Shown: positions 4,427 to 14,756 of the stretch, piece by piece
How positions within the stretch are numbered: the stretch's first letter is position 1
How the letters are laid out: each line of letters begins with the position of its first letter
Origin: a virus
Taxonomy: Duplodnaviria > Heunggongvirae > Uroviricota > Caudoviricetes
Virus record (IMG/VR): IMGVR_UViG_2563366854_000001
Coordinates: 1-22,290 of that record
DNA: 22,290 nt
Strand: one strand, 5' to 3'
Notes under the pieces: model-generated
Seen by the model: only the letters and a program-made list of their open reading frames with translations
What the model was told of the DNA's origin: nothing
Databases searched by the model: none
Position numbers and translations under genes: made by a program

Positions 4427-4930
4427 ATGGACAAATTTGATAGAAGTGCACAAAGGCAGTTGTTACAAATACTGTATGATGCTCATCCTTATGAAATTTC
4501 TGATGATGCGTTGCAGTCTGTTCGTGACGCATTTGGAGATGATAATGTCCTAATTTCGAACTTAATTTATCTCGAAGAACATGGCTTGATTAAGAATGCT
4601 CTTGATTATTACTTGGATGGCATAAATATAAATATTCCTGAATTAAGAATTACTAAAGATGGAATTGATTTCATTCGTGATGATGGAGGTCTTAAAGCTA
4701 TTCTTGGGATTATGACAATAAGATTGCATGATGAGACTCTCTGTGAACTTGAACGTATCATCAATAGTTCTACTTCTGCCACGACTGAAGATAAGAAGAA
4801 ATTACTCTCTCAGCTTCGAACGCTTCCTGCCGACGCCATAAAACAGCTGACGATTCGATTACTTGGTCAGGGGCTTGACCATCTGCCGGACGTATTTCAC
4901 GTAATTCAAAAAGCCCTCCATTCTCTGTAA
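4427..4930 (+). CDS. Hypothetical protein, putative N-terminal winged-helix domain (AT-rich accessory gene)
   Basis: 167-aa ORF starting at ATG 4427; AT-rich codon usage unlike flanking genes; motifs LIYLEEHGLIKN and ITKDGIDFI resemble wHTH recognition helix and wing. Confidence 0.6.
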   Translation: MDKFDRSAQRQLLQILYDAHPYEISDDALQSVRDAFGDDNVLISNLIYLEEHGLIKNALDYYLDGININIPELRITKDGIDFIRDDGGLKAILGIMTIRLHDETLCELERIINSSTSATTEDKKKLLSQLRTLPADAIKQLTIRLLGQGLDHLPDVFHVIQKALHSL

Positions 4931-5108
4931 ATTCTGATTCTGGTCGGATTAGACAGAATCGTCCCCATCCGACCTGCTTACTAAGTAGAATCCAGAATTC
5001 GTCTTGTTGGTTGGTGCTGATAAAAAATCCATTAGGATGAACGTAAGCACAGAATATGACCATAGAACCCTCTTTTGTTACGGGGATACTAAGATTGTTA
5101 AAGAGCTA

Positions 5109-5131
5109 AGCGTCCTGTAGGGCGCTTTTTT
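5109..5131 (+). terminator. Rho-independent terminator-like hairpin
   Basis: AGCGTCC-TGTA-GGGCGCT (7-bp stem with one G-U pair) followed by TTTTTT; about 180 nt downstream of the 4427..4930 stop. Confidence 0.5.
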
Positions 5132-5216
5132 GTTGCTAACGAATCATCCGGTCATTCATACGCCACCGGCGGCTACTTCGTGGGCGTCCTGCCTGTCCGT
5201 GATAGCTTACATTATG

Positions 5217-5288
5217 TTGCTACTTAAAGTAGCAAAAATCAACAACAAAAAGTAGATATTTGTTGTTGTCTATGATTTTTCTATAATT
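5217..5288. promoter_or_regulatory. Operator-like palindromes plus a sigma70-like plus-strand promoter
   Basis: Near-perfect palindrome TTGCTACTT-A-AAGTAGCAA (5217-5235), related to the 13-bp motif repeated next to cI/cro; second inverted repeat AACAACAAA-N9-TTTGTTGTT (5241-5267); TTGTTG (5260-5265), 16-nt spacer, TATAAT (5282-5287). Confidence 0.4.
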
Positions 5289-5426
5289 AATTGAAAGTTA
5301 AATGTTTTTGCTGATTTACTATGCTGTAAACTGAAAATATCGCACGAAGTTGGAGTAGGTATTGAGCATAGTGAATTATGAGGAGGGAGTTTTTTATGAG
5401 ATTAATCAGGGAGAAAGAAGAGTAAA

Positions 5427-5446
5427 GCCCGGTTATGCGGCCGGGC
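5427..5446 (-). terminator. Hairpin immediately downstream of the ParA-like gene (candidate terminator)
   Basis: GCCCGG-N8-CCGGGC; on the minus-strand RNA it is followed by UUUACUCUUCUUUCU; begins 8 nt after the ParA-like stop. Confidence 0.4.
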
Positions 5447-5453
5447 ACATGCA

Positions 5454-6530
5454 TTACTTTGTAAGTTCTAGAACTCGTTGAGCCAGCCCTTTAAATTGTT
5501 CGTTAAAGGCGTCTCTGCTTGATTTCATTGTATTTAAGGCATGCCCAAATTGCCCTGAATCGCGAATTTGCTGATCACTGATGGAGAAAACAGGTGTCGC
5601 TAGTTGTTGGCTTATTGCGATTAATGAGTTGAAATCGGAAATATGCGCAAGATCATAGGCTGATAAATCTCCACTGACTGTTGTTTTGTTAATTGCATGT
5701 TGCACTTTATCTCGTGGAATTATGCAGGTAATTTTTTCTAGATTTGGCACTAAGATCGAATCAACAGCATCACGGATAGCTGCCATCCATTTTTCGAAAG
5801 ATTTTACAGGTGCTCCTTTACGCGGCCTGTATCTCTGCTGAATCATACCTAGAAACTGCGGTGCATTTTTAATTGATTGTGAAGAGTTACCATCATTATT
5901 TTCTTTAAATAATGCTAATTCTTTGTGCCAGCGAGGTATATTTTTTGAGAGAGAGCGAATTGCTTGCCAGCAAAAAAAGTCTGGAGCTACAGGTACGATA
6001 AAATAGTCACTTGACATGAGAACTACTTCATTTAAACCTCCAACATTAGGGCTGAGATCATAAAGAATGTAATCAATATTATTCTTCATGGCGATTAGCT
6101 GTAATATTTTTGGCAGGTTCCCTGGTATATTTCTTGTAGCAGGAATACCAGCAGCAATTTTTAGAGAAACACTTATCTGTGAATCTAAGTCCGAAACATC
6201 TAAATGTCCGGGAAGAAGCAGAAGGTTTTCATGCAGTGTAGGGTGTAATTTTCCCGTTTCTTTTTCAAGGTATGCTTCAGGTTGTCCGCCATTAATCAAA
6301 TATTCTACAATAGGTCCAAGAGTTAAGTTATCTCTGCTAGAATAAAAAGAATCTAAACCCTCATCAATCTTTTCATAGCCAAGAACCATTCCTGTTAGAT
6401 TACATTGCGAATCAAGGTCAACCATCAATACTTTCTTGCCTTCATCCGCAAGTGCCCATCCAAGATTGAAGGTTGTTGTGGTTTTACTTACCCCACCTTT
6501 ATGATTAAAAAAACAAATTGATTTTGTCAT
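5454..6530 (-). CDS. ParA/MinD-family P-loop ATPase with long C-terminal extension (orphan; no ParB partner seen)
   Basis: 358-aa ORF; deviant Walker A NHKGGVSKTTT near the N-terminus, VLMVDLDSQCNLT motif, Walker-B-like ILYDLSPNVGG; AGGA upstream of the ATG; AT-rich; same strand as and directly downstream of the cI-like repressor. Confidence 0.8.
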   Translation of the reverse strand: MTKSICFFNHKGGVSKTTTTFNLGWALADEGKKVLMVDLDSQCNLTGMVLGYEKIDEGLDSFYSSRDNLTLGPIVEYLINGGQPEAYLEKETGKLHPTLHENLLLLPGHLDVSDLDSQISVSLKIAAGIPATRNIPGNLPKILQLIAMKNNIDYILYDLSPNVGGLNEVVLMSSDYFIVPVAPDFFCWQAIRSLSKNIPRWHKELALFKENNDGNSSQSIKNAPQFLGMIQQRYRPRKGAPVKSFEKWMAAIRDAVDSILVPNLEKITCIIPRDKVQHAINKTTVSGDLSAYDLAHISDFNSLIAISQQLATPVFSISDQQIRDSGQFGHALNTMKSSRDAFNEQFKGLAQRVLELTK

Positions 6531-6700
6531 ATTTCTCTATCCTTTCGACCCCCAGCATATTGTAATTTACGCTGGGTGATTATTTTATATTGTTAATGAT
6601 AATGTTTAATAAAAATAAGAGAGTAAAACAACTATTAGTAATAGCACTTGCTTGATAAATATTATTTTTTCACCTTTAGTTCTATAGTCTAAACGAAGAA

Positions 6701-7462
6701 CTAAAGCCGGTTGTATTTAATTGATTCGTGTATCAATGCTTTGCCCATAACATAAAGTTGATCTTGGGACTTCTCATCAATGTACCATTTCTCATAGGCT
6801 GGATTATCCGAAAGAACGGCGAGTTTGTTGCCTTGCATTTGTAGACGTTTAACGTGGAACGTCTTACCATAAACGAAAGAGTAAACACCATCAGTTTGGA
6901 AGTTGCGAACAGAAATGTCGACAAACAGTCGATCTCCGGAAACTAGAGTAGGGGACATGCTGTCGCCATTTACAGTCATAACTTTAATATCATCTTGAGA
7001 ACGATTACCGAAAAGAGAACGGGCATGCTCTGTTGTGAACTCAATGGCGTAGAGCACATCAACATAGTCTGAAAGCATATAGGTTCCAGGTCCTGCGCTA
7101 ACGCTAAGATCCAAAACTTCTATCCTGTATACATCGGGTTTTGTTGGATTGGGGATGCTTGCCATTTCCTTACATCCTTCTCTCTCGCCAACACCATATT
7201 CTAAATATGAAGCTGATACCCCCAGAGCCAATGCAAGTTTATTCATGACAGAGGCACGAGGCTTCGCAGCGCCGATTGTGTATCGCCGCGCCATTTCATA
7301 TGTAACGCCCACAAGACTTTTGAGTTGGGTGACAGAAATTCCCTTGTTTGTCATTAGCTCGTTTAGTCTCTTGGCGAAATCTGGATACTTCTGTTCTTCT
7401 ACCATAGGTAGAAGGTTACTCGCATCACATACGCTAGTCATTTCTATTTTAAGTAGTTGCAT
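6701..7462 (-). CDS. cI-like prophage repressor (XRE-type HTH plus S24 LexA-like peptidase domain)
   Basis: HTH LMTNKGISVTQLKSLVGVTYEMARRY; Ala-Gly cleavage-site-like SAGPG; S24 motifs VNGDSMSPTL and KRL. Start is ambiguous (7462, 7441 or 7405) with no strong SD, so it may be leaderless. Confidence 0.85.
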   Translation of the reverse strand: MQLLKIEMTSVCDASNLLPMVEEQKYPDFAKRLNELMTNKGISVTQLKSLVGVTYEMARRYTIGAAKPRASVMNKLALALGVSASYLEYGVGEREGCKEMASIPNPTKPDVYRIEVLDLSVSAGPGTYMLSDYVDVLYAIEFTTEHARSLFGNRSQDDIKVMTVNGDSMSPTLVSGDRLFVDISVRNFQTDGVYSFVYGKTFHVKRLQMQGNKLAVLSDNPAYEKWYIDEKSQDQLYVMGKALIHESIKYNRL

Positions 7463-7503
7463 TCTGCTATTTTAAGTAGCATCATCCCTCTGAATTTCAG
7501 AGG
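7444..7503. promoter_or_regulatory. Immunity-region operators between cI and cro
   Basis: Two identical 13-bp copies CTATTTTAAGTAG (7444-7456 and 7467-7479, 23 bp centre to centre) plus palindrome CCTCTGAA-T-TTCAGAGG (7487-7503) overlapping the cro SD. Confidence 0.55.
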
Positions 7504-7511
7504 AGAAAGGT

Positions 7512-7775
7512 ATGTCATCTCAAAACTACACAGAGAAAGCAGTAAAAGCTGCGGGAAAATCTTTATCTGAAGTAGCCCGTCACTTTGGTTTTAAGTCCAC
7601 TCAATCCGTCGCTAATTGGGTAATTAACAATCAAGTCCCGTCAGAACGGGTTTTACAACTTTGTGAGTTGGGAAACTGGTCCGTGACCCCTCATGAACTG
7701 CGTCCTGATATTTACCCCAATCCAAATGATGGATTACCTGAGTGCTATTCAAAAGTTAGCGGTTCAGCTGCGTAA
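7512..7775 (+). CDS. Cro/YdaS-like HTH regulator
   Basis: 87-aa ORF with GGAGAAAGG upstream; divergent from cI across the operators; C-terminal ELRPDIY resembles the YdaS family (memory-based). Confidence 0.7.
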   Translation: MSSQNYTEKAVKAAGKSLSEVARHFGFKSTQSVANWVINNQVPSERVLQLCELGNWSVTPHELRPDIYPNPNDGLPECYSKVSGSAA

Positions 7776-7803
7776 ACGTAACCACAGAAACGAGGAGTTA
7801 ACC

Positions 7804-8355
7804 GTGGGTAAGCATCACTGGAAAATAGAAAAACAGCCTGAGTGGTACGTGAAAGCTGTCAGAAAAACTATCGCAGCGTTGCCGGGGGGTTACGCTGAAG
7901 CTGCTGACTGGCTGGACGTAACAGAGAACGCATTATTTAACCGCCTTCGTGCCGATGGCGATCAGATTTTCCCGCTGGGATGGGCAATGGTTTTACAGCG
8001 TGCTGGTGGCACTCACTTCATTGCTGATGCTGTGGCGCAGTCTGCAAATGGCGTATTTGTGTCTCTTCCTGACGTCGAGGATGTGGACAACGCCGATATT
8101 AACCAGCGTCTGCTGGAAGTCATTGAACAGATCGGCAGTTATTCAAAACAGATTCGTTCAGCAATCGAAGACGGTGTAGTGGAACCGCATGAGAAGACAG
8201 CAATTAACGACGAGCTGTATCTCTCAATTTCGAAGCTGCAGGAGCATGCAGCACTGGTCTACAAAATCTTTTGCATTTCAGAAAGTAATGACGCCCGCGA
8301 GTGTGCAGCTCCGGGCGCCGTGGCGTGTCGTGACTGTGGAGAAACTAACGCATGA
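7804..8355 (+). CDS. YdaT-like protein (putative CII-type regulator)
   Basis: Start placed at GTG 7804-7806, 7 nt after GAGGAG and just after the cro stop; the ATG-initiated 7693 ORF would overlap cro by 80 nt. Assignment is by position and size. Confidence 0.5.
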
Positions 8356-13197: not shown

Positions 13198-13245
13198 TAT
13201 GTTGCGGAGGCAAAGCCTCCCGCAACATATCTTTTTCGTAAGTCA
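13198..13245 (+). terminator. Strong rho-independent terminator (tR'-like) downstream of Q
   Basis: ATATGTTGCGGAGGC-AAA-GCCTCCCGCAACATAT followed by CTTTTTCG. A second hairpin GGGGCGT-GGAA-ACGCCCC at 13092-13109 has a U-tract on the opposite strand and may terminate the porin transcript. Confidence 0.6.
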
Positions 13246-13247
13246 GA

Positions 13248-14330
13248 TTAGAACTGATAAACCAGACCTACAGCGACGATGTCGTCGGTATCAATACCAG
13301 CTGTTTTGGTAAACTTACTATCGTCAATTAAGTTGATTTTGTAATCAACAAAAGTAGACATGTTTTTATTAAAGTAGTAAGTAGCACCGACATCGACATA
13401 CTTGACTAAGTCTCGGTCACCATGAACACCAAGGTCTTTACCTTTTGACTGAAGGTAAGCAACAGATGGGCGCAGACCGAAGTCAAACTGATATTGTGCT
13501 ACTGCTTCAAAGTTTTGTGCTTTGTTTGCAATATGGTTATTACCAAAAACGGTCATATTCTGAGTTTCAGAATATGTGGTAGCCAGATAGATATTGTTCG
13601 CATCATATTTCAGGCCTGCAGCCCATACTTCCGCATTTTTGCCGGAGGCATTGAATTTGCTCTTACCATAGGCGACCTGACCGTCAGTGCGATCTGATTT
13701 AGCATAGGTTGCACCCACGCCGAATCCTTCATACTCATAAGTAGTGGAGAAACCGAAACCATCACCATTGGCTTCAGTTACGTCAGTGCGGTCATTTTTA
13801 CCCTGATACTGAGCAGCAAAGTTCAGGCCATCGACCAGACCAAAGAAGTCGTTGTTACGATAAGTTGCAACACCAGTAGTGCGACCAGTCATGAACACAT
13901 CTGTTTGGGTCCAGGTATCACCACCGAATTCTGGCAGAACGTCAGTCCACGCACCGATGTCGTATGCTACACCGTAGTTACGGCCGTAATCGATGGAGCC
14001 GTAATCACCAAATTTCAGGCCTGCAAATGCAAGACGGGTTTTGTCTTTGGAAGAACCTTGAGATTCAGCACGGTTGCCTTTGAATTCATATTCCCACTGA
14101 CCGAAACCAGTCAGTTGATCGTTGATTTGGGTTTCACCTTTGAAGCCAAGACGGGCATAAGTAGTATCACCATCATCTGCATCATTAGAGGAGAAGTAGT
14201 GCTTGGCATTAACTTTCCCGTATAGATCCAGCTTGTTACTGTCTTTATTATAAATTTCAGCTGCCTGAGCAGACATCGCCATCAGTACTGATGCAGCTAC
14301 AGCAGAAATTGCCACTGTTAATTTTTTCAT
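13248..14330 (-). CDS. nmpC: Outer-membrane general porin, OmpC/NmpC family (lysogenic-conversion moron)
   Basis: Start at internal Met [23 protein letters not shown] (signal peptide); porin hallmarks AEIYNKD...LDLYGKV and C-terminal GLVYQF; lies between Q and the holin, as nmpC does in DLP12-type prophages. Confidence 0.85.
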
Positions 14331-14756
14331 TGTACGCCCTTTTTTTGAACTATTATTAAAAAATGATGTCACTGCGCGATAAATATTCATCTAATCAATG
14401 TGATTATTTCAAGATGTAAGTTTTAGTTTCTCATTTAATTTGTGAAGTAGATCTCTATTTTTATCTGAACCTTTTCTATCTAATCCTATTCATGGCTCTT
14501 GTCTGAACAAAAATAAATCTATTAGCTAATTTATATTAATGGCACTTATTTATAAGTGCTCTATAATTCTTTAGCTTAATTTAAACAAACTAAAAATAAC
14601 ATCGGAAATTATTAACTGATTATTTGTTGAAGTTTTCTTATGTATTTGTGGTGGTGTTTTGAACACTCGGTGGCATTCTCACAAATATCATTTAGTAGTT
14701 TACGTACGTAAAAAATTGGTTATGCTGTTAAGAGTGGTTACTTCGTCACACAGCTT

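Follow-up and report, generated by a model that had tools for sequence, protein, structure and literature searches.

The intergenic DNA at positions 5205-5260 of the window, by which we mean the whole stretch of 22,290 nt that was analysed, contains palindromic sequences resembling phage operators. It raises the question of which regulatory protein they serve, and of the direction in which the promoter associated with them is read.

Organization of the immunity region

The window is a CPS-53/KplE1-like lambdoid prophage of Escherichia coli, and the following features of its immunity region are needed for the analysis.

6701-7405, minus strand: cI-type repressor (HTH and S24 peptidase), 234 aa according to PGAP in relatives
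7512-7775, plus strand: Cro-like YdaS-family protein, divergent from the repressor gene
7693-8355, plus strand: CII (CP76) protein, a neighbour in the immunity region
5454-6530, minus strand: ParA-like ATPase, in the same orientation as cI
5427-5446 (read from 5446 to 5427), minus strand: intrinsic terminator at the end of the cI-ParA-like immunity operon, from a consensus scan

The repressor ORF as opened in the window spans 6701-7462 on the minus strand, and the start assigned by PGAP lies at 7405. Its product matches PF01381 (N-terminal HTH), PF00717 (C-terminal S24 peptidase) and phrog_4 (transcriptional repressor), and the domain matches provide the combination of HTH and S24 peptidase that characterizes the CI/LexA-type, SOS-cleavable repressors. 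The nearest phage repressors are HK639 cI (59%) and HK022 cI (42%). The gene order runs from cI through the ParA-like gene and the terminator to OL, with yfdP/yfdQ-type early genes to the left; the OL site, about 2.2 kb from OR, lies beyond the 3' end of the cI operon, where the leftward early operon begins. The identical immunity region was found in 109 of 5,426 complete E. coli genomes, and the phage database contained no close relative of it, the matches there being to the leader RNA described below only.

The ParA-like P-loop ATPase matches AAA_31 and phrog_164, and its weak matches to PADLOC PDC-M28B are restricted to the P-loop. It occupies a cargo slot between cI and OL, which is the slot of rexAB in lambda and which in relatives is filled by diverged ParA genes or by one of several unrelated small-gene pairs. 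A role as superinfection-exclusion or defence cargo is possible.

Operator sequences shared by OL and OR

The palindromes were compared with the intergenic region of cI and cro. The preliminary description of this DNA had presented the first of them as a palindromic version of the 13-bp motif that is repeated beside cI/cro, and this is borne out: the sequence TTGCTACTT-A-AAGTAGCAA (5217-5235) is a perfect 9-1-9 palindrome, and the 13-mer CTAYTTWAAGTAG, searched for with up to two mismatches, occurs at 5220, 7444 and 7467 only in the 22,290 bp. Counted as strand-matches, six were observed against 0.95 expected, and none of 100 shuffles reached six. The operators and the elements of PR around which they are arranged are as follows.

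5220-5232: OL1, 13-bp operator core CTACTTAAAGTAG, inside the extended perfect palindrome 5217-5235 and within the PL spacer
5243-5255: OL2, weaker operator CAACAAAAAGTAG, at a distance of exactly 23 bp from OL1, as between the two OR sites
7444-7456: OR2, CTATTTTAAGTAG, upstream of the PR -35 element
7467-7479: OR1, CTATTTTAAGTAG, downstream of the PR -35 element
7457-7462, plus strand: PR -35 element TTGCAT, flanked by OR2 and OR1
7480-7485, plus strand: PR -10 element CATCAT

A third operator was sought at OL at distances of ±22-24 bp and at +45, allowing at most one mismatch in CTAC/GTAG, and none was found; OL has two sites only and not the three tandem operators of the lambda, P22 and 434 type. 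The operator strings had no relevant context in the searched literature, which likewise contained nothing relevant on KplE1 immunity.

Perfect inverted repeats with arms of at least 9 nt and a loop of at most 3 nt numbered 2 in the window against 0.37 expected, and those with arms of at least 10 nt and a loop of at most 12 nt numbered 3 against 0.28. Single perfect palindromes of this size nevertheless arise by chance in about 20-30% of simulated windows, so that the palindrome alone is weak evidence, and the palindromes might be fortuitous features of an AT-rich intergenic spacer without any regulatory role. The first palindrome stands above chance because its motif is shared with the cI/cro intergenic region, and with that region exclusively, and because it is conserved in relatives. 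The exact spacing of 23 bp, a core that outlasts the turnover of its flanks in 11 loci and an alignment of OL to OR that requires no gaps (see below) also contradict a fortuitous origin, which we consider very improbable. The same distribution of the motif, its retention in the 11 loci and the gapless alignment favour the further proposal of the preliminary description, namely that the first palindrome is an OL-like operator to which the cI/cro repressor would bind.

In strain EC93 (L136), two positions differ from the window, G5216A and C5233T. The latter breaks the outermost pair of the extended palindrome and leaves the 13-mer core untouched. Additional perfect inverted repeats, TATGTTGCGG with a 12-nt loop (13198-13229) and CATATTCTGA with a 3-nt loop (13554-13576), were observed near or inside the minus-strand ORF 13248-14390.

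The OR region contains three more elements.

7399-7411: CTACCATAGGTAG, an OR3-like palindrome with its centre at the start codon of cI (7405 to 7403)
7413-7441, minus strand: candidate PRM, ATGACT (7441 to 7436), 17 bp, TAACCT (7418 to 7413), kept in L013 despite a diverged spacer
7487-7503: perfect palindrome (8-1-8), CCTCTGAA-T-TTCAGAGG, where the cro-like mRNA is predicted to begin

The predicted start of the candidate PRM falls on the A of the cI ATG (7405), so that the cI mRNA would be leaderless, as it is in lambda. The Shine-Dalgarno sequence GAGGAG is part of the palindrome at 7487-7503, which is largely kept in relatives; this palindrome could form a hairpin that sequesters the ribosome binding site, or it could be a binding site.

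Conservation of the OL core in related prophages

The OL-region search matched 206 genomes, and variants of the OL core were present in about 200 E. coli genomes. Ten diverged loci, all of them from E. coli (L002-L004 and L007-L013), were compared, and operators were scanned for as CTAC-N5-GTAG with at most one mismatch in the eight outer positions. In 11 E. coli prophage loci with the repressor, OL1 and OL2 are always 23 bp apart and a core of about 40 bp is kept, the OL2 of L004, with two mismatches, being the sole exception to the mismatch limit. Three OR sites are present in every locus, at x, x+45 and x+68. The conserved core consists of OL1, the spacer CAAAAATCAA and OL2; in L013 the spacer is CAAATAGCAA according to an anchored alignment. 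Outside a stretch reaching from about 12 nt before OL1 to 3 nt after OL2, the sequences belong to at least five unrelated flank families, and the cargo between cI and OL (ParA-like genes or differing small-gene pairs) and the first leftward genes vary among the loci as well.

As the relatives are all E. coli and share ancestry, the conservation of the 40-bp core is partly a matter of descent, but the complete turnover of both flanks means that descent does not explain it entirely. Moreover, in L008, L011 and L012 it is OL2 that has the better sequence (CTACAAAAAGTAG) and OL1 that bears a mismatch (CTACTTAAAGTTG), which argues that both positions behave as operators of one protein. The loci of Citrobacter (L005) and Enterobacter (L006), whose repressors are 60-72% identical, were left out of the footprinting because their operator motifs differ.

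The proposed leftward promoter PL

The promoter elements proposed for PL, both from homology and consensus, are the following.

5237-5242 (read from 5242 to 5237), minus strand: PL -35 element TTGATT, inside the inter-operator spacer
5214-5219 (read from 5219 to 5214), minus strand: PL -10 element CAACAT, 17 bp from the -35 element

OL1 fills the 17-bp spacer between these hexamers, and OL2 abuts the -35 element upstream. The hexamers themselves are weak (4/6 and 3/6, that is 7/12), and neither PL nor PR was picked up by a generic consensus scan. The minus-strand sequence of OL is CTACTTTTTGTTG-TTGATTTTTG-CTACTTTAAGTAG-CAACAT, and the plus-strand sequence of OR is CTATTTTAAGTAG-TTGCATTCTG-CTATTTTAAGTAG-CATCAT. 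The two align without gaps, with a mean column identity of 79% over seven OL and OR sequences; among the columns that do not vary are those of TTG in the -35 element and of A2 and T6 in the -10 element. The OR spacer of L013, TTGATTTTTG, reproduces exactly the reverse complement of the OL spacer of the window. The gapless alignment identifies OL/PL as a paralogue of OR/PR that points leftward. In relatives, the -10 candidates at a distance of 17 bp are CAGAAT, CATCAT, CAATAT and TAGATT, in which A2 and T6 are always kept, and the corresponding PR elements are CATCAT and CATTAT.

From consensus and homology, the start of PL is predicted at about 5206-5208 on the minus strand. An alternative -10 element, CATAAT, overlaps the proposed one at 5211-5216, 20 bp from the -35 element, and the change G5216A of EC93 converts it into a perfect TATAAT; owing to this overlap, the exact -10 element and start are uncertain by about 3 nt.

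Taken together, we estimate a probability of roughly 80% that 5205-5260 is an ordinary lambdoid OL/PL region of an uncharacterised immunity type that faces leftward, a reading carried by the distribution, conservation and geometry of the motif, by the paralogy of OL and OR and by the promoter context of the leader RNA. This corrects the direction of the promoter, which is predicted to read leftward into the early genes and not rightward. The operator specificity is new, and the region is distinguished by two operators in place of three and by weak hexamers. An operator set (CTAC-N5-GTAG, 23 bp apart) and a promoter layout are now assigned for an uncharacterised immunity group, which permits the immunity type to be predicted and experiments on induction or repression to be designed rationally, for example in the strains NCTC86, ECOR29, EC93 and APEC O18.

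The mode of action suggested by this arrangement can be outlined as follows, repressor binding and its cooperativity, the exact start and IHF binding being predictions from the sequence. A sigma-70 promoter on the minus strand would fire leftward from about 5207, and dimers of the CI-type repressor are predicted to bind the two 13-bp CTAC-N5-GTAG sites. The distance of 23 bp between OL1 and OL2, and between OR1 and OR2, corresponds to about two helical turns and would allow cooperative binding. CI bound at OL1 and OL2, probably in a cooperative manner, would occlude the spacer and the -35 element and thereby block RNA polymerase, and RecA-stimulated self-cleavage through the S24 domain (SOS) would release CI and derepress PL.

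The second palindrome and the proposed rightward promoter

Two further elements to the right of OL1 had been proposed.

5240-5268: second palindrome, CAACAACAAA (5240-5249)-N9-TTTGTTGTTG (5259-5268), with perfect arms of 10 nt
5260-5287, plus strand: TTGTTG-N16-TATAAT, with TTGTTG at 5260-5265 and TATAAT at 5282-5287 (its end is not at 5288)

The second palindrome, given in the preliminary description as AACAACAAA-N9-TTTGTTGTT, is present, and its arms are slightly longer than claimed, but its status as a separate, conserved operator-like site could not be upheld. Its left arm combines the PL -35 element (minus-strand TTGATT) with the left half of OL2, and the AAGTAG half-site of OL2 falls within the loop. 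Of the six flank families, five either lack the right arm (families of L003, L008 and L011) or have it in degenerate form (L002 and L013). On this comparison, the palindrome is lineage-specific and not a separate conserved site.

It might nonetheless be a protein-binding site in its own right, recognized by Cro or a different regulator, or form a cruciform or hairpin serving as an insulator or terminator before PL. The perfection of the 10-nt arms and the rarity of repeats of this size (the 3 against 0.28 mentioned above) would be in keeping with such a role, as would the RNA hairpin predicted for the minus strand (-10.5 kcal/mol, z = -3.5, as compared with -8.9 kcal/mol for the plus strand), which is followed by AUUUUUG. 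However, the loss or degeneration of the right arm occurs in loci with the same repressor and Cro types, the sequence is of the low-complexity type (CAA)n/(TTG)n with only three G-C pairs in the stem, the upstream operon already has a strong terminator (5446 to 5427), and no conserved feature depends on the hairpin. We regard an independent function of the second palindrome as distinctly improbable.

The outward promoter toward the mini-ORF was not substantiated. TTGTTG-N16-TATAAT scores 3/6 and 6/6, that is 9/12, which was reached in 202 of 500 shuffles of the AT-rich segment, so the match is at the level of chance; it is missing from the list produced by the consensus scan, and the five other flank families have no counterpart at a conserved position. 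The evidence favours a promoter that faces leftward. Divergent transcription would require that, besides PL, this plus-strand promoter fires rightward under the same operators, producing a short mini-ORF transcript or an antisense RNA that covers the 3' end of the cI-ParA operon. The perfect TATAAT and the 16-bp spacer are compatible with it, and so are the purine-rich, Shine-Dalgarno-like stretch and the tiny ORF that precede the terminator hairpin (5380-5425), with loosely similar arrangements in L002 and L003. Against these points stand, in addition to the 3/6 match of the -35 element, the frequency of the score in shuffles and the missing counterparts, a mini-ORF peptide that is not conserved, the ATG of the conserved sequence AAATGTTTTT being lost in L004, L007, L010 and CH4784; on the plus strand, the hairpin at 5427-5446 lacks a T-run, and the rightward TATAAT overlaps the conserved IHF-like core described below. 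A second, divergent promoter is thus considered unlikely.

Two ORFs of this segment were discarded during the analysis: the mini-ORF 5396-5425 (MRLIREKEE), which is not conserved in relatives, and a 55-aa ORF at 5287-5454 on the minus strand, which is spurious, with no match in Pfam, PHROG or PADLOC and no tblastn match in relatives.

An IHF-like site upstream of PL

To the right of OL2 lies a candidate site for IHF.

5284-5309, minus strand: putative IHF-like site, core TTTCAATTAATTA (5296 to 5284) and A-tract AAAAA (5309 to 5305)

The core matches WATCAANNNNTTR at 12 of 13 positions, and the A-tract is situated 8 nt upstream of it, so that the sequence combines both parts of an IHF site, the core and a 5' A/T tract; the layout of A-tract, N8 and WATCAANNNNTTR is that of the H' site of lambda attP. 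Relative to PL, the site, which the rightward TATAAT overlaps, is placed at about -83 and, with the A-tract, extends from about -77 to -102. In the alignment of the related loci, a conserved TTGAAW/TTGATT to the right of OL2, at an offset of 36-39, corresponds to the reverse complement of the IHF core, and an IHF-like core with at most one mismatch was identified at an offset of 29-32 from OL2 in five of the six flank families (P about 0.01-0.02 per family), that of L013 matching at 13 of 13 positions. The IHF-like site keeps its position in relatives whose flanks are otherwise unrelated.

IHF bound at the candidate site would bend the upstream DNA and probably stimulate PL. Lambda pL is reportedly stimulated by IHF together with a distant UP element (Giladi et al. 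1992 and 1998). In lambda, too, AT-rich DNA and a core of the IHF type are situated some 75-105 bp upstream of the promoter, but the lambda upstream region agrees less well with the 13-mer IHF consensus than the site described here, no match with one mismatch or fewer being found.

A structured leader RNA at the start of the predicted PL transcript

Immediately downstream of the predicted PL start, the following elements were identified.

5139-5200 (read from 5200 to 5139), minus strand: structured leader RNA of 62 nt, with an outer stem 5196-5200/5139-5143
4427-4930, plus strand: rightward gene of 167 aa, phrog_3983, separating the PL leader from the leftward early genes
5108-5127, plus strand: terminator of the phrog_3983 gene, from a consensus scan

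The leader RNA begins about 8 nt past the predicted PL start. Its outer stem encloses the invariant sequence GGCAGGACGCCCACGAAGUAGC and a hairpin (5165-5169/5148-5152) with the loop GGCRWAYGAA, the invariant segment between the arms of the outer stem being 22 nt long. Within 4700-7800, only 5092-5203 is common to sequenced phages, among them SfV, SfII, SfIV, ST64B and mEp460. The core of the leader RNA, of which each locus has a single copy, was found in at least 120 IMG/VR contigs and in 1,534 of 5,426 E. coli genomes. Among 109 distinct sequences, compensatory changes were observed at 9 of 13 pairs, and 97.5% of cells were paired, as compared with 22-45% in slid controls; the covariation score was 0.567, against at most 0.131 in the controls.

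Additionally, 105 distinct contexts upstream of the leader RNA, with many different operator types, were examined. A sigma-70-like promoter scoring at least 9/12 was found on the RNA-sense strand in 79 of them and on the opposite strand in 16, and at a score of at least 10/12 the counts were 49 and 0, respectively. The distance from the -10 element to GGCAGG is 20-32 nt, most often 20-21 nt in the subfamily of the window, where TTGATT-17-CAACAT is at a distance of 20 nt. These results point to the leader RNA as the 5' leader of PL transcripts and support the leftward direction of PL in the window.

The PL transcript would accordingly open with the 62-nt leader and then run antisense through the rightward gene 4427-4930 and the terminator 5108-5127. 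It is important to mention that a rightward gene with its own terminator directly downstream of the leader, which PL must read through in antisense, counts against the model. A 97-aa ORF at 4770-5063 on the minus strand was considered as the first gene of PL and rejected as probably spurious, since it has no family match and overlaps a real gene, the plus-strand gene 4427-4930 (phrog_3983, E = 2.6e-59).

No match to Rfam (release 15) was obtained at gathering thresholds over the whole window, and a permissive search of 5000-5500 returned noise (E about 1-10). The leader core and leader strings gave nothing relevant in the searched literature, and the supplements of a paper on putRNA structure contained no sequence matching the leader RNA. 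Membership in the put family was rejected: the covariance model R1 had no match in HK022 (putL) or in the HK639 leader at E ≤ 1, and the architecture differs. Antitermination of the N/nut type was discarded as well, given that the ORFs that come first after the leader vary widely across about 110 loci, none of them looking N-like by eye.

The leading hypothesis for the function of the leader RNA is put-like antitermination, and we put it forward tentatively. In its wider form, which is equally speculative, the leader would represent a new class of cis-acting regulatory RNA, likely a put-like processive antiterminator or anti-pausing element acting on RNA polymerase, that replaces N/nutL in N-less phages of the SfV/ST64B/mEp460/CPS-53 type, with OL/PL as its dedicated, repressor-controlled promoter. 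With the direction of the promoter corrected, a structured RNA comes to light at the start of the PL transcript that is widespread and shows strong covariation, and that is a candidate for early-gene antitermination in N-less lambdoid phages.

On the minus strand, a sequence AGCTCTTTAACAA (5107 to 5095), which agrees at 12 of 13 positions with the boxA of rrn operons, comes after, and not before, a hairpin optimised for the plus strand. Some relatives carry CGCTCTTTAACAA in its place.

Comparison with lambda, HK639 and HK022

The OL/PL region of the window and that of lambda share their place past the cI operon (about 2.2 kb from OR here, about 2.4 kb in lambda), the presence of repeated operators of the same repressor over the leftward early promoter, with neighbours 23-24 bp apart, and an AT-rich upstream region with GCAAAAA at about -100. 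The leaderless cI mRNA and the OR3-like site on the PRM start of lambda are also matched here by candidates. In contrast, lambda has three operators and the window two, the lambda operators are of 17 bp and those of the window are 13-bp CTAC-N5-GTAG sequences, OL1 lies in the promoter spacer here and over the -10 element in lambda, and the PL hexamers score 7/12 here and 10/12 in lambda. Finally, PL is followed in the window by the structured leader RNA, and not by an N gene or a canonical nutL.

HK639 and HK022 have the same repressor family and gene order (cI, cro, cII) as the window, and in both phages PL is directly followed by a cis-acting leader RNA without an N gene, as observed here. 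The operators of HK639, however, are of the ATAAC-N-GTTAT type and differ from CTAC-N5-GTAG. Like the leader RNA of the window, the put RNA of HK022 begins about 10 nt or less from the PL start, has a strong structure and high conservation between immunity types, and is found in phages whose first gene is not N-like. The two show no sequence similarity, and they differ in that HK022 put RNA is composed of two tandem stem-loops, whereas the RNA described here has an outer stem around the invariant 22-nt segment and the hairpin, and in that the latter is present in a single copy per genome region, unlike put.

Two features of the leader RNA, GCAGGACGC-CAC and a hairpin whose loop is AUGAA, recur in the PL leader of lambda (L138, 35300-35900; +1 AUCAGCAGGACGCACUGACCACCAUGAAGGUG...). 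The lambda leader looks like a shortened relative, located upstream of the nutL boxA.
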